A DNA stretch of 63,662 nucleotides, the filler included. It is 5 parts of 5 records of this genome, joined end to end, with 100 filler letters (N's around TTAATTAATTAA, not from the genome) between each part and the next. Parts side by side here need not be neighbours in the genome. Positions count along the whole stretch, not along the records: positions 1 to 26,646 come from SRR20825006_2941; 4 more parts are not named here. One strand, 5' to 3'. A program made the translations under genes and the position numbers. Shown in pieces: positions 1 through 39,204 of the stretch (the stretch's first letter is position 1; every line of letters starts with the position of its first letter). The notes beneath the pieces are model-generated. The model saw only the letters and a list, made by a program, of their open reading frames with translations. It had not been told where the DNA came from and ran no database searches.

Positions 1-124
1 CTGTGGAAACTGTAACCGTTACTTCTGGCGTAGTTGGATCATCGCCGTCTTTTGAACAAGAAGTGAGTATAAAAAATGAAACAAAAAGTAAAATTGAAAA
101 CCGATATTTTTGTGAGGTGCACAT
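1..124 (-). CDS. Lipoprotein, N-terminal part only (runs off window start)
   Basis: Manual translation MCTSQKYRFSILLFVSFFILTSCSKDGDDPTTPEVTVTVST...: hydrophobic stretch, lipobox LTS-C, then SKDGDD (Bacteroidetes surface-lipoprotein-like). Not in the ORF track. Confidence 0.75.
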   Translation of the reverse strand, partial: MCTSQKYRFSILLFVSFFILTSCSKDGDDPTTPEVTVTVST

Positions 125-218
125 TATTAAAGAAATGTTAAAGTTTTAATTGTTCAAATATAAAAAATCTGGTTACTAAAGCAACAGGATTTTTTTGATA
201 AAATAAGAAGGGCTATTT

Positions 219-321
219 CTACTAATAATAAGTAAACCTTCTAACCTGGGCACTATATGTCGCCAAACGAGTTACACGATGTAGTTGTTGCAAATTCAAG
301 GTTTGAAACTACCAAAGATCC
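219..321 (-). pseudogene. Decayed, internally deleted duplicate of the gap 3' end
   Basis: 219-275 matches 1910-1966 at 51/57 nt (first 30 nt identical). 287-321 matches 2193-2227 at 32/35 nt. Translates to GSLVVSNLEFATT and VTRLATYSAQVRRFTYY*, versus GSLVVLNLEFATPT and VIRLAKYIAQVRRFTYY* in the intact gene. Confidence 0.9.
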
Positions 322-431
322 TTTTTAAAAAAGTAGGAAAACAACCACAGTGAAAATGGGGGATTTCCCTCTTGTTTGCTATTGTTTTTTTTATAAACCT
401 TGTTAGAAAGTAACCCTTAAAATTTTAACCA

Positions 432-920
432 ATGAGCAACACAAACCAAAACTTACTAAACCAGACCCTTGCAGATCTGGAAGTTACCGAAATTATGAAT
501 GCCTTAAACACTGCGGCCGCTGCTTTTCCAGACGCTACGCTTAACGATGAGCAACGCCGTAACCTAAACGCTATAAGTGTAGATAACAAGGTATTTGCAG
601 AAGAGATGCTAGACGAGATGAACACCAACCCCAATCTAGCCGTTAACGCCACCTACAATTTGGAGTTTTTGGCAAACGACCTTCAGCTTTTTGAACAGGT
701 AGAAACCATTATAAGCCGTATGATGGATATGCTACAGCGGCTTGAAGACGTAAAGCGCCTTGCGGGTCACGAAGCCTATGGCATGGCCACGGGAGCCTAC
801 GGCCTGCTTGAAGTTATGGCGCGCACAGGCGTACCCGGCGCACAGGCAAGTTTTGATAGGCTTAAGGTGCGTTTTGCGGGGCAAGGAGGCAGAAACCCCG
901 CGCCACCAATGGAGGGATAG
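432..920 (+). CDS. Hypothetical 162-aa predicted alpha-helical protein
   Basis: Clean ORF with an AT-rich initiation region, followed by a terminator. Resembles from memory a Bacteroidetes hypothetical family (L..EQRR.L..I...NK.F...; G.EAY..A...Y......A...VPGA...D.LK.RF). No function assignable. Confidence 0.8.
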   Translation: MSNTNQNLLNQTLADLEVTEIMNALNTAAAAFPDATLNDEQRRNLNAISVDNKVFAEEMLDEMNTNPNLAVNATYNLEFLANDLQLFEQVETIISRMMDMLQRLEDVKRLAGHEAYGMATGAYGLLEVMARTGVPGAQASFDRLKVRFAGQGGRNPAPPMEG

Positions 921-928
921 GGTTTAGG

Positions 929-957
929 AAATACAGGTAGCAATACCTGTATTTTTT
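929..957 (+). terminator. Rho-independent terminator
   Basis: AAATACAGGTA-GCAA-TACCTGTATTT-TTT: perfect 11-bp stem, GNRA loop and T tail, 8 nt after the ORF stop. Confidence 0.85.
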
Positions 958-973
958 AGAATATTAGGCAGCT

Positions 974-1204
974 GTCTAATAAAATAATATAACAGTCAAA
1001 TTAAACTAACTAGTTGTCTACTAAAATTTAATAGTTGTCTCATACTATAGTGTATAGCTCTAATTTAATACTAAATTAATCTAATAAAATAGGAGCGTAG
1101 TCTCATAAAATAGCATCGTAATTAAATTTAATAGTATACCAATCTAATAAAACAGGATAATAGTCTAATTAAATATCATAACAGTCTAATTAAATTCTAT
1201 AATG
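974..1204. repeat. Non-coding tandem array, 11 x 21 bp, consensus GTCTAATWAAATANNATANYA
   Basis: Units start at 974, 995, 1016, 1037, 1058, 1079, 1100, 1121, 1142, 1163 and 1184 with no indels. Columns 2, 7 and 11 are invariant. Stop codons occur in the frames checked and no ORF is listed across it. Confidence 0.9.
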
Positions 1205-1561
1205 ATGAAAACAAAATACCTCCAAAAGAACACCTCGCCCCATTTGGGAAAATTGCTTAAAGACCATATTATAAAGCATAGCGTTTATAGAAGTTCGCTG
1301 TCCCGTTATATGGAGCGCCAACCTTCCACCATTGAGTATTACCTAAAACAGCCCACACTGCAAACAGCCTTACTCTGGGAACTAAGCACCGCCCTAAAAC
1401 ACAACTTTTTTAAAGACCTCGCCGCCCAGCTGCCAGCAGATTTTACCACCAATGCCCCAGACACTACCCTGCCGTTTCAGGAGCGTATTGCTGCGCTGGA
1501 GCAGGAAGCAAAGTTAACGAATGCCAAGCTAGAAGAGCTTAGGGCAGTGGTGCGGAAATAG
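1202..1561 (+). CDS. XRE/Cro-like helix-turn-helix protein with C-terminal coiled coil
   Basis: HLGKLLK...SLSRYMERQPSTIEYYL...LWELSTALKHNFF fits an XRE-type HTH. The heptad-like tail is RIAALEQEAKLTNAKLEELR. Confidence 0.7.
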   Translation: MMKTKYLQKNTSPHLGKLLKDHIIKHSVYRSSLSRYMERQPSTIEYYLKQPTLQTALLWELSTALKHNFFKDLAAQLPADFTTNAPDTTLPFQERIAALEQEAKLTNAKLEELRAVVRK

Positions 1562-1611
1562 TTGGGTTTTTATGTTATATTTGGATGATTAAGTAACTGA
1601 AAAACAATAAT

Positions 1612-1776
1612 TTGAAATATTTTTTGTTTCTTGATGAAAGTGGAGATCACGGTTTAAAAACTATCGACCAAATTCGAACAATAGACAAATCAAGAATAAT
1701 AAAGGAATATCCCCGACTATCTAAATCGGAAATCCAAAAATGTAAAGATATTATTCGAGAAACATTCGTGGATTAA
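1612..1776 (+). pseudogene. 54-aa chimeric ORF: DUF3800-like N-terminus fused to a PemK/MazF-like C-terminus
   Basis: TTG start; MKYFLFLDESGDHGLKTID + QIRTIDKSRIIKEYPRLSKSEIQKCKDIIRETFVD*. A TATATTTG -7 promoter element lies at 1576-1583. Confidence 0.7.
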
Positions 1777-1860: not shown

Positions 1861-1892
1861 AAAAAATCCCGCTATTTTCAGAGCGGGATTTT
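1861..1892. terminator. Probably bidirectional terminator downstream of gap
   Basis: AAAATCCCGCT-ATTTTCAG-AGCGGGATTTT inverted repeat flanked by A and T runs. Confidence 0.8.
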
Positions 1893-1912
1893 GTATGTAT
1901 AGGTGGTTACTA

Positions 1913-3361
1913 CTAATAATAAGTAAACCTTCTAACCTGTGCAATGTATTTTGCCAAACGAATTACTTGGTGGCTATAGCCATATTCGTTATCATACCAT
2001 ACATAAAGCACTACGTTTTTACCGTCTTCAGTTACAATAGTTGCATTACTGTCGTAAATAGAAGGGGCAGAAGAACCAACAATATCGCTAGAAACAAGCT
2101 CGTTGCTCATAGAGTATTTAATTTGTTCTACTAAATCGCCTTCCAATGCATATTTTTTCATTGTAGCGTTAATTCCATCTACCGTAGTTGGGGTTGCAAA
2201 TTCAAGATTTAAAACTACCAAAGACCCGTTTGGAACCGGAACACGAATCGCGTTGCTAGTAAGTTTGCCAGCCAAAACAGGCAATGCTTTTGCAACAGCA
2301 CTTCCAGCGCCAGTTTCTGTAATTACCATATTTAATGCTGCAGCACGACCACGACGGTATTTGCTGTGCATATTATCTACCAAATTCTGGTCGTTTGTAT
2401 ATGCGTGAATTGTTTCCAAATGTCCACGAACCACACCGAATGAATCTTCAACAGCTTTCAGAATAGGAGTGATGGCGTTTGTAGTACACGAAGCTGCAGA
2501 AAAAATATCGACCGTATTTGGGTCGTATTCGTTTTGGTTTACACCGTGCACGATGTTTGGCACTCCTTTTCCAGGAGCAGTAAGCAATACTTTTGAAGCA
2601 CCTTTGGCTTTTAAGTGTCTGCTTAACTCTTTATCATCACGGAAAGCACCCGTATTATCAATTACCAAAGCATCTTCGATACCGTATTTAGTATAATCAA
2701 TTTCTTCCGGATTGTTTGCTGAAATAATATGAACCGTAGTTCCATTAATAATTAAAGCACTGTTTTCAAGGTCTGTGCGAACAGTTCCAGGAAAATCTCC
2801 GTGTACAGAATCATTTTGAAGCAAGGAAGCTCTTTTGTCTAAAACGGTTTGATCCATCTTTCCACGTACTACAATTGCACGAAGGCGAAGTTGGTTTCCT
2901 TGGCCAGTTCTAGTCATAAGTTCACGAGCCAACAAACGGCCAATACGTCCAAAACCATAAAGAACTACATCTTTTGGTACTAGGCTTTTGGTTTCTTTAG
3001 CTTCTTTTAATTTATCTGAAACAAATGCTAATGCGTTTGAATATTTATCGTCTTCCAAGTGAAACTCATAGGTAAGTTTACCAATGTCTAGTTTTGCTGG
3101 AGGAAGATCCAGAGTTTTGATAGCCTGTGCAATTTCAACAGAATCGAAGATTGAGATAGGCTTTTGTACGAATTCGCCAGCATATTCGTGAAGGTTTAAA
3201 ATTTCACTCACATTGCGGTCGATAAGTTGGTTACGGAAAAGTACCAATTCAATGGACTTGTCGTACCAAAGGTCGCTAATGATTTTAATAAATTCTACTG
3301 AGGCTTTCCTGCGGTCAGTTTGAAAGGACAGTTCTTTTTCATAAACGTCATCAAAACTCAT
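1913..3361 (-). CDS. gap: Glyceraldehyde-3-phosphate dehydrogenase, long form with N-terminal extension
   Basis: GFGRIGR, SAASCTTN catalytic Cys, RVPVPNGS and WYDNEYGY motifs. Confidence 0.95.
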   Translation of the reverse strand: MSFDDVYEKELSFQTDRRKASVEFIKIISDLWYDKSIELVLFRNQLIDRNVSEILNLHEYAGEFVQKPISIFDSVEIAQAIKTLDLPPAKLDIGKLTYEFHLEDDKYSNALAFVSDKLKEAKETKSLVPKDVVLYGFGRIGRLLARELMTRTGQGNQLRLRAIVVRGKMDQTVLDKRASLLQNDSVHGDFPGTVRTDLENSALIINGTTVHIISANNPEEIDYTKYGIEDALVIDNTGAFRDDKELSRHLKAKGASKVLLTAPGKGVPNIVHGVNQNEYDPNTVDIFSAASCTTNAITPILKAVEDSFGVVRGHLETIHAYTNDQNLVDNMHSKYRRGRAAALNMVITETGAGSAVAKALPVLAGKLTSNAIRVPVPNGSLVVLNLEFATPTTVDGINATMKKYALEGDLVEQIKYSMSNELVSSDIVGSSAPSIYDSNATIVTEDGKNVVLYVWYDNEYGYSHQVIRLAKYIAQVRRFTYY

Positions 3362-37614: not shown

Positions 37615-39204
37615 ATGCAGATCGAAGAACTGCTGAATGAAGGCCTGAAACGCGAATATAAAGTTGTTGTCGAGGCCTCTGAGCTTGATGCCCGCCTTGA
37701 TAATGTGCTGCTCGAGTTTCGCGCTAACGCAAAAATCAAGGGCTTCCGCCCTGGCAAGGCGCCTCTGTCGCTTCTGAAGCGTATGCATGGCGACCGCGCG
37801 AAAGGCCAAGTGCTGAACGAGGCACTGCAGGAATCGTCAGCCAAGCTTTTCGAAGAAAAAGAAATCCGCCCGGCTATGCGCCCTGAGGTGGACATGGCTT
37901 CCGAGTATGAAGACGGTAAAGACCTTGAGTTCACCGTGAAGGTAGAAATTCTGCCACAGGTTGAGGTTGAGGGCTTCAAAGCGCCTGCGCTTGAGCGTTG
38001 GGTTGCTGAAGTTGAAGACAAAGACGTTGACGCGTTCATTGAGCGTATCGCAGGCCAGCAGAAATCATTCGCAAAGGCCGCCAAAACCACAAAAGCTGGT
38101 GAAGGCGACGCGATTCTGATCGACTTTGTCGGCAGCGTGGACGGCGTTGAGTTTGAAGGCGGCAAGGGTGAAGACTACCAGCTCGAGCTTGGCTCCGGCA
38201 CTTTCATCCCGGGCTTTGAAGAGCAGCTCACCGGTGTTAAAGCCGGTGACGAGAAAGTCGTGAAAGTGACTTTCCCTGCTGAGTATCACTCTGAAGACCT
38301 CAAGGGCAAAGAAGCCGAGTTCAAAGTGACTGTGAAAGAAGTGCGTAAGCCTTCTGAAGCCAAGGTTGACGACGAACTGGCGAAAAACCTGGGTTTTGAA
38401 GACCTCGCAGGTCTGAAAGAATCAGTAAAAGGTCAGTTGGCGAATGACAACAACTCGCTGACACGCGCCCACATGAAGCGTGGCCTTCTGGATGCGCTTG
38501 CTGAAGAGTATGATTTCGACGTGCCTGCTGGCATGGTTGACCTTGAGTACCGTCAGATCTGGGATCAAATCAAACGCGATGCGATCCAGACAGGCGAAGC
38601 AAAAGCTGAAGACTTTGAAGGTCAGGACGAGCCGGCAGATGCTGATGAAGCTGCTGAGTTCCGTTCTATTGCAGAGCGCCGCGTGCGCCTTGGTCTGCTT
38701 CTTTCCGAACTGGGCGTTAAAAACAACGTGCAGGTAACACAGGAAGAAGTGAACCGCCGTGTTATTGAGGAAGCACGCCGCTTCCCGGGCCAGGAAGCTC
38801 AGGTTTTCGAGTTCTACCAGAAGAACGAAGAAGCTCGTGCTCAGCTCCGCGCACCAATCTTTGAAGAAAAGGTTGTGGATTTCGTGATTGAAATGGCTGA
38901 ACTGACAGACAAGTCTGTAAGCCGTGACGAGCTTGAAGCTGCGGTTCGCGCCATCGACGAAGAAGACGCAAACCCAACAAAGAGCAAAGCAGCGCCAAAG
39001 AAAAAAGCTGCTGCTAAAAAGCCTGCTGCTAAAAAAGCTGCTCCTAAGAAAGAAGCTGCTGAGAAGAAGCCTGCTGCAAAGAAAGCTGCGCCTAAAAAGG
39101 AAGCTGCTGAAAAAGCGGCTCCGAAAAAAGCTGCAGCCAAGAAGCCAGCTGCTAAAAAGGCACCAGCAAAGAAAGCTGCGCCGAAAAAAGCTGCTGATAA
39201 ATAA
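37615..39204 (+). CDS. tig: Trigger factor with Lys/Ala/Pro-rich C-terminal tail
   Basis: GFRPGKAP ribosome-binding motif, FKBP domain FIPGFEEQL, AERRVRLGL. Confidence 0.96.
   Translation: MQIEELLNEGLKREYKVVVEASELDARLDNVLLEFRANAKIKGFRPGKAPLSLLKRMHGDRAKGQVLNEALQESSAKLFEEKEIRPAMRPEVDMASEYEDGKDLEFTVKVEILPQVEVEGFKAPALERWVAEVEDKDVDAFIERIAGQQKSFAKAAKTTKAGEGDAILIDFVGSVDGVEFEGGKGEDYQLELGSGTFIPGFEEQLTGVKAGDEKVVKVTFPAEYHSEDLKGKEAEFKVTVKEVRKPSEAKVDDELAKNLGFEDLAGLKESVKGQLANDNNSLTRAHMKRGLLDALAEEYDFDVPAGMVDLEYRQIWDQIKRDAIQTGEAKAEDFEGQDEPADADEAAEFRSIAERRVRLGLLLSELGVKNNVQVTQEEVNRRVIEEARRFPGQEAQVFEFYQKNEEARAQLRAPIFEEKVVDFVIEMAELTDKSVSRDELEAAVRAIDEEDANPTKSKAAPKKKAAAKKPAAKKAAPKKEAAEKKPAAKKAAPKKEAAEKAAPKKAAAKKPAAKKAPAKKAAPKKAADK

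Follow-up and report, generated by a model that had tools for sequence, protein, structure and literature searches.

Near the left end of the window (the whole stretch of DNA analysed, 63.7 kb) we found a ~1.35-kb module that consists, in this order, of a gene for a 162-aa helical protein (c1), a terminator, an array of 21-bp repeats, a gene for a 119-aa helix-turn-helix (HTH) protein (c0) and an outward promoter box. The module is inserted beside a glyceraldehyde-3-phosphate dehydrogenase-like gene (gap), which occupies positions 1913-3361 on the minus strand. The features of the locus are as follows.

216..325, no strand assigned: internally deleted remnant of the gap 3' end, a direct repeat of 1907-1966 and 2193-2231 (D3 88%, D4 90%)
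326..431, plus strand: conserved region upstream of c1, with a G5-ATTT-C3TC hairpin/palindrome at 358-371, then TTG
432..920, plus strand: c1, 162 aa, all-helical, of an unnamed Bacteroidota family; the conserved left half of the module
931..958, plus strand: intrinsic terminator 3' of c1, with a 9-bp stem at 931-952 and a T-run at 953-958, -11 kcal/mol
974..1204, plus strand: 21-bp repeat array, 11 x 21 bp, directional (non-palindromic), consensus approximately GTCTAATWAAATA..ATA
1202..1561, plus strand: c0, 119 aa, with an XRE/lambda-repressor-like five-helix HTH at ~15-75, a linker and a leucine-zipper-like C-terminal helix at 90-118
1562..1600, plus strand: promoter-like box, facing outward, that immediately follows the c0 stop codon, with TTG at 1562-1564 and TATATTTG at 1576-1583
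1612..1776, plus strand: 54-aa ORF, gene debris, whose C-terminus corresponds to the final 35 positions in the PemK/MazF profile (PF02452, E 8.5e-5)
1863..1892, minus strand: terminator of the gap-like gene, an 11-pair stem with a T-run
1907..2231, minus strand: 3' end of the intact gap-like gene, which is the right-hand copy in the island-flanking duplication

The remnant at 216..325 is the left edge of the inserted island. Positions 33-281 of the window align contiguously with the empty-site junction in genus relatives, where the start of a lipoprotein gene is followed by a spacer and the gap 3' end. Among 30 loci compared at the gap site, at least 18 are empty. The debris ORF at 1612..1776 has an N-terminal 'DESGDHG', which we take to resemble DUF3800.

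Upstream of c1, the palindromes GGGGGAWWTCCCCC and/or CAGGRTTTTYCCTC were found at 70-100 nt in 13 c1-bearing loci, and they precede the array in two loci that have no c1 (L022, L045). c1 itself was present in 29 loci and was modelled as a helical protein with a pLDDT of 80. c1 could be assigned to no family or fold by searches of Pfam, NCBIfam, PHROGs, PADLOC, Foldseek PDB, VIA wide and the ESM Atlas, the best structural match in VIA wide (Z 5.9) being to generic helical hairpins. In 23 of 28 loci, c1 and the array are separated by a hairpin with a T-run; a consensus terminator scan of the window failed to list the one at 931..958.

To the right of c0, the sequence TAnnTTTG occurs at +3 to +14 after the stop codon in 22 of 54 loci, and we take it to be a putative promoter by its likeness to the Bacteroidota promoter consensus. 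At other loci this box is followed by a conserved right-end element of ~90 nt that ends in ...CATGTT and then GGCA, GTGC or similar, and that is replaced or truncated in the window. Repeated intergenic elements ending in AACGTTAGCG were found in L043 and L046; in the complete genome of a relative the right-end element was not a dispersed repeat. As a single strand it folds no better than shuffled sequence in 7 of 8 cases, with L002 (z -2.2) as the exception, and covariation was seen in just one of the 14 predicted pairs. An attC site, which would be a folded imperfect palindrome between cassettes with GTTRRRY at its end, or a structured RNA was considered as its identity and not adopted, given these folds, the near absence of covariation and the lack of an Rfam match (none at E <= 0.1 in the right-end elements or arrays of six loci).

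The repeat array and its counterparts at homologous loci

Stacked in rows of 21, positions 974-1204 gave 11 units with zero indels, all of them distinct (11/11), so that the exact phasing, the units and their coordinates were as given in the preliminary description. Columns 2 (T), 7 (T) and 11 (A) were invariant, each in 11/11 units, and column 3 was C in 10/11. The variation had been described as concentrated at columns 14, 15 and 19, and these were indeed the most variable, with the commonest base present in 5/11, 5/11 and 4/11 units, respectively; columns 8, 1, 20 and 21 vary too. Also borne out was the description of the array as non-coding and ending on the c0 start codon, as unit 11 terminates in the ATG at 1202-1204 that is the first start of ORF 1202-1561. 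The closest homologues have ATT ATG here, and the ATG at 1205, the second one, may therefore be the conserved c0 start; with either start the array adjoins the start codon.

The autocorrelation of the array was 0.633 at lag 21, 0.582 at lag 42 and 0.637 at lag 63. In 5000 dinucleotide-preserving shuffles the lag-21 value had a mean of 0.335 (sd 0.031, maximum 0.457), which places the array at z = 9.5, and none of the 5000 attained 0.633 at any lag from 6 to 63. The periodicity, which the preliminary description had left to be compared with shuffles, is thus significant. Only one other site in the window, a 15-bp repeat at 38.9-39.2 kb, was equally periodic. Default TRF detected two pieces only (1080-1120 and 1125-1195, period 21), and permissive settings gave 974-1201 with period 21, 10.9 copies and 64% matches, together with a 63-bp super-period; with 64% matches this array is among the more degenerate ones. 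The 13-mer core GTCTAATWAAATA, allowing up to 2 mismatches, had 11 matches in the window, 8 of which lay inside the array, against a chance expectation of 3.4, and the scan of the window found no extra copies close to either the outward promoter box or the promoter of c1. The G+C content of the array was 21.6%, compared to 46.6% for the window.

The array has an iteron-type feature, namely tandem directional repeats of the 17-22-bp class at a spacing of about two turns, and a feature of partition centromeres, a tandem-repeat block that precedes a gene encoding a small DNA-binding protein. Dyad symmetry of the unit consensus sequences did not exceed that of shuffles (mean z 0.6; p ~1 for the window), so the usual model of a symmetric operator for an HTH dimer is not directly applicable and was dropped. 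A CRISPR array is ruled out, in agreement with the preliminary description, since the units are contiguous without spacers and no cas family was found in the scanned flanks.

A locus was counted as array-bearing if TRF gave a score of at least 100 upstream of c0, and by this measure an array of ~200 bp was found just upstream of c0 in 47 of 54 homologous loci, the window included, with a median length of 211 bp. The period was 21 bp in most loci, 22 bp in L008, L015, L031, L038 and L044, and 11 bp in L004. The seven loci without a clear 21-bp array were L004 with its 11-bp form, L020 (contig edge), L027, L028, L047, L049 and L055. Over 70 loci (601 kb), 49 such arrays were located at most 150 bp upstream of c0, whereas tandem repeats of all kinds numbered 25 elsewhere. 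Loci from Flavobacteriaceae and Chitinophagaceae agree in the position, size and period of the array, while the unit sequence is specific to each locus. As units of ~43-50% G+C were found in some arrays (L019, L048, L050), it is the helical spacing that is conserved and not the A+T content. Between the array and the c0 ATG, TAnnTTTG was absent in 43 of the 47 loci.

The c0 protein and its co-variation with the array

The AF2 model of c0 (pLDDT 79) has helices at residues 15-25, 30-37, 41-49, 55-65 and 69-75, forming a five-helix bundle with the helix-turn-helix at helices 2-3, as in the XRE / Cro-C1 fold. In structure comparison, residues 10-80 matched Stl with Z 9.0 (rmsd 2.2 over 68 aa) and ImmR, DdrO, ClgR and C.Esp1396I with Z 8-8.6, and 49 chains reached a Z of at least 8. 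At the sequence level, no family in Pfam, NCBIfam or PHROGs matched at E <= 1 except for noise, and the HTH_3 and HTH_26 profiles were unmatched. The PDB profile search gave P22 C2 at E 0.17 only, with no solved P2 C chains among the matches listed; the Foldseek E-values were weak (0.05-0.2), and HTH_3 or HTH_26 was found in 13-16% of the members of the Atlas neighbours. Because it has no significant HTH profile match, c0 represents a divergent, unnamed branch of XRE-type proteins, and its family, nameless and unannotated, comprises 1377 clusters at 50% identity. The zipper-like C-terminal helix in the model probably leads to dimers or higher oligomers. Helix 41-49, the putative recognition helix, is among the most variable structured segments of the protein (2.29 bits), and helix 5 is nearly invariant (0.53 bits).

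We compared loci in six pairs, all of which are similar in nucleotide sequence over the promoter and body of c1. In five pairs, the similarity vanishes from the c1 tail through the terminator and the array to residue ~50-64 of c0, and returns in the C-terminal half of c0; in the closest pair, the window and L002, it is uninterrupted. The dissimilar stretch spans most of the XRE-type HTH head, including the putative recognition helix. As similarity is lost jointly over the array and the HTH head, the two either diverge or are exchanged as a unit. At the protein level the mean identity was 36% for the HTH half of c0 versus 56% for the C-terminal half, the latter being the higher in 728 of 780 pairs.

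The similarity of the repeat units tracked the identity of the HTH half (partial Mantel p = 0.009) more than that of the C-terminal half (p = 0.063). This analysis, split by c0 domain, supersedes one on whole-c0 identity, in which the association with array similarity, controlling for c1, gave only p = 0.08. In pairs with c1 at least 80% but c0 less than 65% identical, unit similarity was at background level. Much of the co-variation between the array and c0 could reflect the co-inheritance of linked DNA.

Distribution and exchange of the module

The module is scattered through the chromosomes of some marine Bacteroidota, where it is multi-copy and patchy. Genomes carry three to five copies, with different units in each, and five copies were found in one complete 3.4-Mb chromosome. 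A plasmid or phage origin was rejected, as tblastn with c0 and c1 gave no match in 72,556 plasmid records and c1, the one searched there, none in 50,697 phage records; a search of IMG/VR gave one weak match. In the full texts searched we found analogues only and no published description of the c0 family, the array or the module.

That the array forms the centre of a 1.35-kb module, mobile or exchangeable, had escaped the preliminary description. L024 and L026, two loci of one genome, have exactly 1333 bp in common at 98% identity between unrelated flanks, two different organisms share 1405 bp at 93%, and the phylogenies of c1 and c0 are incongruent. In our reading, the module is exchanged between chromosomal sites. 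No terminal inverted repeats or target-site duplications of the module were seen. In L006 and L007, a tyrosine recombinase related to integron integrases separates c0 from the right-end element, and its homologues (cluster c8) were found in only 7 of 57 clustered loci. Its match to TIGR02249 reached 216 bits (cut-off 265) in two stretches that skip model positions ~182-236; its identification as an integron integrase was rejected, since the score is below the cut-off and the IntI-specific extra domain was not found. The recombinase in L014 is a member of an IS91-type pair.

Possible functions of the array

The preliminary description had proposed that selection acts on the spacing and the core, and that the array is a putative binding platform for the HTH/coiled-coil protein, serving autoregulation or a nucleoprotein filament. 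Four results agree with this reading: the arrays of the same period and size, and of other sequence, upstream of 47 of 54 homologues; the joint loss of array and HTH head in alignments of related loci in which both flanks are alignable; the correlation of unit similarity with HTH-head identity; and the model of c0, in which a long C-terminal helix comes after an XRE-type HTH. With a probability of roughly 60%, we regard the array as the predicted cognate operator of c0, multi-site and iteron-like, encoded directly upstream of its binder. Because the directional units recur every 21 bp, which is two helical turns, successive c0 heads would be placed on one face of the DNA. The approximately eleven sites may be filled cooperatively by c0, giving a nucleoprotein complex of ~230 bp between the c1 terminator and the c0 start codon. 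As there is no canonical Bacteroidota promoter box in this interval, c0 is probably expressed from read-through or weak transcripts, and the complex would block these, resulting in negative autoregulation. The array and the HTH head would then form one specificity cassette within the ~1.35-kb module, each copy with its own repeat sequence. Eleven sites are far beyond the need of simple autoregulation, which counts against the operator reading.

Several other explanations were weighed against the operator. The array could be a centromere-like or copy-control site (iteron, handcuffing) of an episomal or excised circular island, to which c0 binds, and differing repeat specificities would then avoid incompatibility among the three to five copies in a genome, in each of which the units do differ. 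Its architecture resembles the parC/ParR, tubC/TubR and omega arrays, which lie upstream of an operon and also repress it (extracts of PMC5016525), and the direct duplication of the gap 3' end around the island is what a Campbell-type circle insertion would leave. We nevertheless consider this unlikely, since Pfam scans of 68 downstream and 30 flanking ORFs gave no ParA, ParM or TubZ-type NTPase and no Rep, since the plasmid, phage and IMG/VR searches yielded only the one weak match, and since the XRE-HTH fold of c0 is unlike the ribbon-helix-helix of ParR and omega. The odds are somewhat lower still for an accessory or architectural site of the recombination by which the module is moved or swapped, c0 being a directionality or architectural factor. 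The near-identical segments between unrelated flanks and in two organisms, the incongruent phylogenies and the recombinase in L006 and L007 would fit such a site, but the array is internal, away from the module ends, at which neither inverted repeats nor target-site duplications were seen, and the recombinases are present in few loci, score below the integron-integrase cut-off and in L014 belong to an IS91-type pair.

We give little chance to a role of the repeat as RNA, which found no support. The array could be a long, repetitive 5' leader of c0, or its transcript could be cut to unit lengths, the latter being an alternative that the preliminary description had raised. In the absence of a promoter box between the terminator and the ATG, a read-through c0 mRNA would include the array; against this reading, Rfam 15 covariance models gave no match in 974-1204 at E <= 1 or in the six loci at E <= 0.1, the unit sequence is unconserved among loci, and periods are 21-22 (or 11) bp throughout, matching the helical repeat of DNA. 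A decayed coding repeat, or a functionless slippage product of A+T-rich DNA, is hardly credible. Some frame is free of stops over at least 80% of the length in 19 of 47 arrays, and the array of the window is degenerate, but the stop-free frames are distributed over both strands (11 plus, 8 minus) without a consistent frame, none of them joins the c0 ORF, and in the window and its closest relatives no more than 34-57% is open. Consequently no intact ORF of 7-aa repeats, which the preliminary description had named as a competing explanation, is consistent across the homologous arrays. Periods of 22 and 11 bp are impossible for an in-frame coding repeat, and decay or slippage would not explain a position, size and period kept across two families.

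Plasmid iterons are directional 17-22-bp repeats about two turns apart, beside the gene of their binder, that set specificity and incompatibility; the R6K gamma origin has seven 22-bp iterons, and iterons are bound at the origin by a winged-helix Rep initiator of ~30 kDa. In contrast, c0 has 119 aa and is of the XRE type, and the analysis found neither a Rep nor a DnaA box nor a replicon. A plasmid iteron origin of replication was rejected as the identity of the array, given that the scanned ORFs include no Rep, that the plasmid collection gave no match and that the loci are chromosomal. In lambdoid immunity regions an XRE-type repressor and its operators are exchanged as a cassette, which results in mutually orthogonal specificities (mosaic immunity). 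The structural neighbours Stl (SaPIs) and ImmR (ICEBs1) are likewise island repressors. Such lambdoid and island cassettes govern genes for lysis/lysogeny or excision, whereas the c0 module is without such genes and its operator would be a long tandem array.

As described in extracts of PMC2995052, the P2 C repressor is an HTH protein that binds non-palindromic direct repeats 22 bp apart and is divided into seven immunity classes. c0 resembles this family, as far as those extracts describe it, in being a small HTH protein with direct repeats two helical turns apart, with its gene beside the predicted operator and in a split into classes that differ in operator sequence. However, P2 C has two half-sites, compared to about eleven sites here, and it lacks a C-terminal zipper and acts in a phage switch that includes a facing promoter, whereas the c0 module is chromosomal and not phage-borne (phage search with c1 only).

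According to extracts of PMC5016525, the omega protein of pSM19035 (parS1-3) binds 7-10 contiguous short direct repeats that overlap its own promoter; it binds cooperatively, in a manner that depends on how many copies of the repeat are present, and forms a helix wrapped around the DNA, which is regulated and marked by a single complex. The likeness lies in a repeat array with a small protein, but omega is a ribbon-helix-helix protein on 7-bp units that acts with the ParA-type delta on a plasmid, and the c0 loci, with an XRE-HTH protein, are without such a partner or replicon. In ParR-parC (type II) and TubR-tubC (type III), the same extracts place tandem direct repeats in one block upstream of the operon, with one dimer per repeat, around a dozen dimers arranged as a ring or helix, and repression of the own operon (PMC5016525). 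ParR (ribbon-helix-helix) and TubR (winged-helix) need an adjacent ParM or TubZ motor gene, of which there is none at the c0 loci.

Phased direct-repeat arrays with a small adjacent binder are known from plasmids and phages, as partition sites, iterons and P2-type operators. Here such a design is found in a chromosomal, multi-copy, Bacteroidota-specific module without motor, initiator or phage genes. The dozens of natural head/repeat pairs on one conserved scaffold offer a series for studying how XRE-type proteins read directional repeats and how their specificity is re-coded, and they may be a source of orthogonal repressor-operator pairs for Bacteroidota genetics.

Tentatively, and with a clearly smaller chance than the plain operator, the whole may be a small chromosomal mobile or exchangeable element of Bacteroidota, made up of c1, the terminator, the array, c0, the outward promoter and the right-end element, with no recognisable transposase, Rep or partition motor. 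The array and HTH head would be its swappable immunity cassette, which would allow several mutually orthogonal copies to coexist per genome. The complex of c0 and array would then be more than a plain autoregulator, possibly a segrosome-like nucleoprotein mark without a motor that serves self-recognition or copy control. If the module is mobile or a copy-control device, it would represent a new type of small element in the Bacteroidota mobilome. Each copy would also set its outward promoter before variable downstream genes. For this cargo, a defence-island reading was rejected, with a PADLOC match in 3 of 37 cargo proteins, two of them weak. The ATPase domains found in the scanned ORFs were of the GHKL type only, in two cargo genes.

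Architecture and spread of the repeat array

The repeats lie between two genes, c1 and c0, within a module of about 1.35 kb.

Parts of the module in the window
432-920 (+): c1, gene for a 162-aa protein, upstream of the array; found in 29 loci
931-952 (hairpin) and 953-958 (T-run): terminator in the interval between c1 and the array, -11 kcal/mol
974-1204: array of 21-bp repeats
1202-1561 (+): c0, gene for a 119-aa HTH/zipper protein
1562-1600 region: outward box TATATTTG, a canonical-looking Bacteroidota -7 box, directly after the c0 stop

At window 974-1204, eleven 21-bp units follow one another directly and line up in rows free of indels, no two of them identical. Columns 2 (T), 7 (T) and 11 (A) are invariant, column 3 is C in 10 of 11 units, and the stacked units bear out the statement in the preliminary description that columns 14, 15 and 19 vary most. 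The period it had noted was significant against 5000 dinucleotide-preserving shuffles, with a lag-21 autocorrelation of 0.633 compared to 0.335 ± 0.031 (z = 9.5), and none of the 5000 attained 0.633 at any lag from 6 to 63. The array therefore grew partly by three-unit duplications, lag 63 matching lag 21 in strength and the best TRF period being 63. The G+C content of the region is 21.6%, compared to 46.6% for the window, and the 13-mer core has eight matches in the array and three elsewhere in the 63.7-kb window, each with two mismatches. Rfam gave no match to the array region. Unit 11 terminates in the ATG at 1202-1204; as the closest homologues read ATT ATG at the same place, the conserved start of c0 may be 1205. 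The consensus units show no more dyad symmetry than shuffled controls do (on average 5.7 of 8 pairs at best, mean z 0.6; p ~1 for the window); they are directional, as are iterons or P2-type half-sites, and unlike classical palindromic operators. Strong periodicity recurs at only one other place in the window, 38986-39201, where a AAAGCTGCT-rich repeat of 15/30/48 bp is probably a coding Lys/Ala-rich repeat.

Related loci numbered 70 in total (601 kb), and the c0 ORF, searched for in 57 loci (L001-L056 and the window), was present in 54. A tandem array (TRF score at least 100) stands directly upstream of c0 in 47 of these 54, with a median length of 211 bp (range 110-334), usually 8-13 units, and an end lying from 25 nt inside to 72 nt before the called c0 ORF start. 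Most loci have a period of 21 bp, and L008, L015, L031, L038 and L044 one of 22 bp; an 11-bp version was recognised by eye in L004, and six other loci are without a clear array (L020, at a contig edge; L027, score 76; L028; L047; L049, score 58; L055). Over all 70 loci, 49 arrays were found at most 150 bp upstream of c0, compared to 25 tandem repeats of any period elsewhere. The units of distant loci are unrelated, for example GCCTTAAACCGTTGAAGTTAC in L019 and CCATCTATATACTTTTTTTAG in L037. It is the helical spacing and overall array size that are kept, not the unit sequence, in agreement with the spacing part of the earlier proposal of selection on spacing and core motif.

Descent of the array from a decayed coding repeat is unlikely. 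Although 19 of the 47 arrays have a frame that stays open for 80% or more of their length, it is on the plus strand in 11 and on the minus strand in 8, is never joined to c0, and is not seen in the window array and its closest relatives (34-57% open). In addition, 22- and 11-bp periods are incompatible with an in-frame repeat. Two further repeats were seen: a 42-bp x 6.7 array (TRF score 436) at L066:7018-7300, with a weak c0-like match some 2.3 kb away, and a (GAAATC/GAAATT)n hexamer run immediately 3' of the c0 stop at L041:5336-5416.

The c0 protein and its co-variation with the array

The c0 protein matched no family in Pfam, NCBIfam or PHROG. Its 50 word-indexed homologues come chiefly from Aequorivita and other Flavobacteriaceae, and in an exhaustive profile search 1377 of the 50%-identity clusters scored E ≤ 1e-3 (389 of them E ≤ 1e-10); among the 150 clusters listed, nearly all are about 105-130 aa and match end to end. 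The AlphaFold model, built from 26 sequences, has five helices in residues 15-75, a linker and a single long helix at 90-118 (pLDDT 79). In this predicted structure residues 10-80 superpose on XRE/lambda-repressor-type domains; the best match is Stl of staphylococcal islands (Z 9.0, rmsd 2.2 over 68 residues), followed at Z ~8-8.6 by ClgR, DdrO, ImmR of ICEBs1 and the controller protein C.Esp1396I, and 49 chains match the head at Z ≥ 8. Foldseek E-values were weak (0.05-0.2), and the c0 profile gave insignificant hints only against PDB sequences, namely P22 C2 at E 0.17 and, in the case of the C-terminal helix, bZIP-like peptides. The c1 protein, predicted to be all-helical (pLDDT 80), had no family or fold match in sequence-family and structure searches. 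No description of the c0 family or the module was found in the openly accessible literature.

DNA comparisons of related loci gave a sharp mosaic, in which similarity spans the c1 promoter and body, stops about 45 nt before the c1 stop, is missing from the terminator onward, across the array and into c0 as far as codon ~50-64, is back in the C-terminal half of c0 and is lost again after its stop. This was seen for the window compared to L017, L005 and L014, for L017 compared to L002 and for L007 compared to L015, and in the closest pair, the window and L002, similarity is uninterrupted. If protein and operator co-evolve or are transferred as a pair, a boundary at this very place would be expected, inside c0 and just past the greater part of its DNA-binding head. 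Mean c0 identity is 36% in the HTH half versus 56% in the C-terminal half, the latter being higher in 728 of 780 pairs, and entropy is 2.29 bits in the putative recognition helix (41-49) versus 0.53 bits in helix 5.

Array unit similarity rises from 0.53 at <30% HTH-half identity to 0.86 at ≥80%. It was associated with the HTH half when the C-terminal half was controlled (permutation p = 0.009; reverse p = 0.063), and a cruder test against whole-c0 identity with c1 controlled gave p = 0.08. Linked inheritance adds to this co-variation signal. In all 12 pairs with c1 at ≥80% but c0 at <65% identity, unit similarity was 0.43-0.70, with a background mean of 0.56 (sd 0.07).

Proposed binding of c0 to the array and its precedents

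That c0 binds the array is the best-supported reading. Since 21 bp makes two turns of B-DNA, one c0 head per directional unit would lie on one face of the helix; the C-terminal helix would bridge neighbouring units, and the stretch leading up to the c0 start codon would be covered by the complex. Functionally, the closest precedent is the family of P2 C repressors, HTH proteins whose sites are non-palindromic direct repeats spaced by 22 bp and which fall into seven heteroimmune classes (PMC2995052). In architecture, the closest are the omega-iteron arrays of pSM19035, ParR-parC and TubR-tubC, where a small protein coats 7-12 tandem sites upstream of an operon and also acts as repressor of that operon (PMC5016525). 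Membership of the module in those systems fails, as no motor NTPase, Rep or plasmid or phage context was found among downstream and flanking ORFs and in plasmid and phage records; the c0 fold also differs from ParR and omega.

Eleven sites exceed the needs of autoregulation, and the several orthogonal specificities in one genome are reminiscent of incompatibility or immunity systems. On these two grounds array and c0 may serve in self-recognition or copy control of a mobile module, at a rather low probability.

Probable exchange of the module, and its insertion beside a gap gene

The module acts as a single block. Two loci of one genome, L024 and L026, have exactly 1333 bp in common at 98% identity with unrelated flanks, from 82 nt before c1 to 84 nt past the c0 stop, and a stretch of 1405 bp is 93% identical in L021 and L025, which belong to different organisms. 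The c1 and c0 phylogenies are incongruent (L017 versus L002: c1 94%, c0 53%; window versus L008: c1 33%, c0 59%). A complete Aequorivita chromosome carries five c0 genes, four with c1 about 300 bp upstream, and among 201 genomes sampled from the family, just three have c0. Neither c0 nor c1 had a match in 72,556 plasmid records, nor c1 in 50,697 phage records, and IMG/VR gave a single weak match.

In 23 of 28 loci a hairpin and T-run stand between c1 and the array. Bacteroidota promoters have a -7 box with the consensus TAnnTTTG; 43 of 47 loci have no such box between the start of the array region and the c0 ATG, whereas 22 of 54 have one 3-14 nt past the c0 stop, including the window (1576-1583). 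In many loci (e.g. L013:5358-5455, L024:5343-5426), many of Aequorivita among them, the box is followed by a sequence-conserved right-end element of about 90 nt with two hairpins, ending ...ACATGTT exactly where module copies cease to be similar; it is replaced in the window. This element had no Rfam match and little covariation, and together with the box it could be an outward promoter with a leader, or a recombination site. Downstream genes are unrelated from locus to locus; of the 53 loci with an ORF of ≥100 aa there, 40 have it in the same orientation as c0. Upstream of c1, conserved G/C palindromes GGGGGAWWTCCCCC and CAGGRTTTTYCCTC stand beside TTGAC (window 340-400); they lie 70-100 nt upstream of c1 in 13 c1-holding loci, precede the array in L022 and L045, which are without c1, and occur nowhere else within the loci. 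These palindromes may serve as the operator of some shared factor, or as terminators on the minus strand.

A tyrosine recombinase of about 280 aa lies between c0 and a displaced right-end element at L006:5484-6341 and L007:5501-6343, with further copies at L020:409-1251 and, beside an IS91-type Y2 transposase, L014:6555-8398. Its best match is the integron integrase TIGR02249, at 211-217 bits for the full-length L006, L007 and L020 copies, below the cut-off of 265, and it is without the extra domain of integron integrases. In L015 and L032 other genes occupy the place between c0 and the right-end element.

In the window the module adjoins a glyceraldehyde-3-phosphate dehydrogenase-like gene (gap), whose 3' end is directly duplicated on both sides of an island of about 1.6 kb.

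The gap junction in the window
216-325: original gap 3' end, now internally deleted
326-1906: island with the module, about 300 bp of gene debris and the gap terminator, nothing more
1612-1776: 54-aa ORF of fused-debris appearance; C-terminal match to the last part of the PemK/MazF profile; the N-terminal 'LDESGDHG' motif may resemble DUF3800
1907-2231: second gap 3' end, intact, 88-90% identical, completing the gap gene

The assignment of 216-325 follows from the contiguous alignment of window 33-281 with the empty-site junction of relatives. Among 30 gap loci from 41 genus relatives, 19 were assignable: gap is directly followed by a lipoprotein gene in 13 and a DUF748-type gene in 5, giving at least 18 empty sites among the 30, and c0 and c1 are present in the 1.5 kb available at one gap locus only, 100% identical to the window. 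The duplication suggests a Campbell-type insertion of a circle that would have borne a piece of gap.

In the Flavobacterium loci L043 (470-3210, 6210-8870) and L046 (700-2330, 6340-7290), with no integrase in the 10 kb covered, repeated intergenic elements of about 60-180 nt occur at a spacing of one gene; each is an imperfect palindrome with AACGTTAGCG or AACGTTGTGTG at its end and is attC-like. The complete genome of L002 (G001) has a distant c1-like gene without c0 around 1348818-1349252 (E 2e-8) and, at 1258653-1258765, away from any c0, a solitary copy of the right-end element (77% identical).
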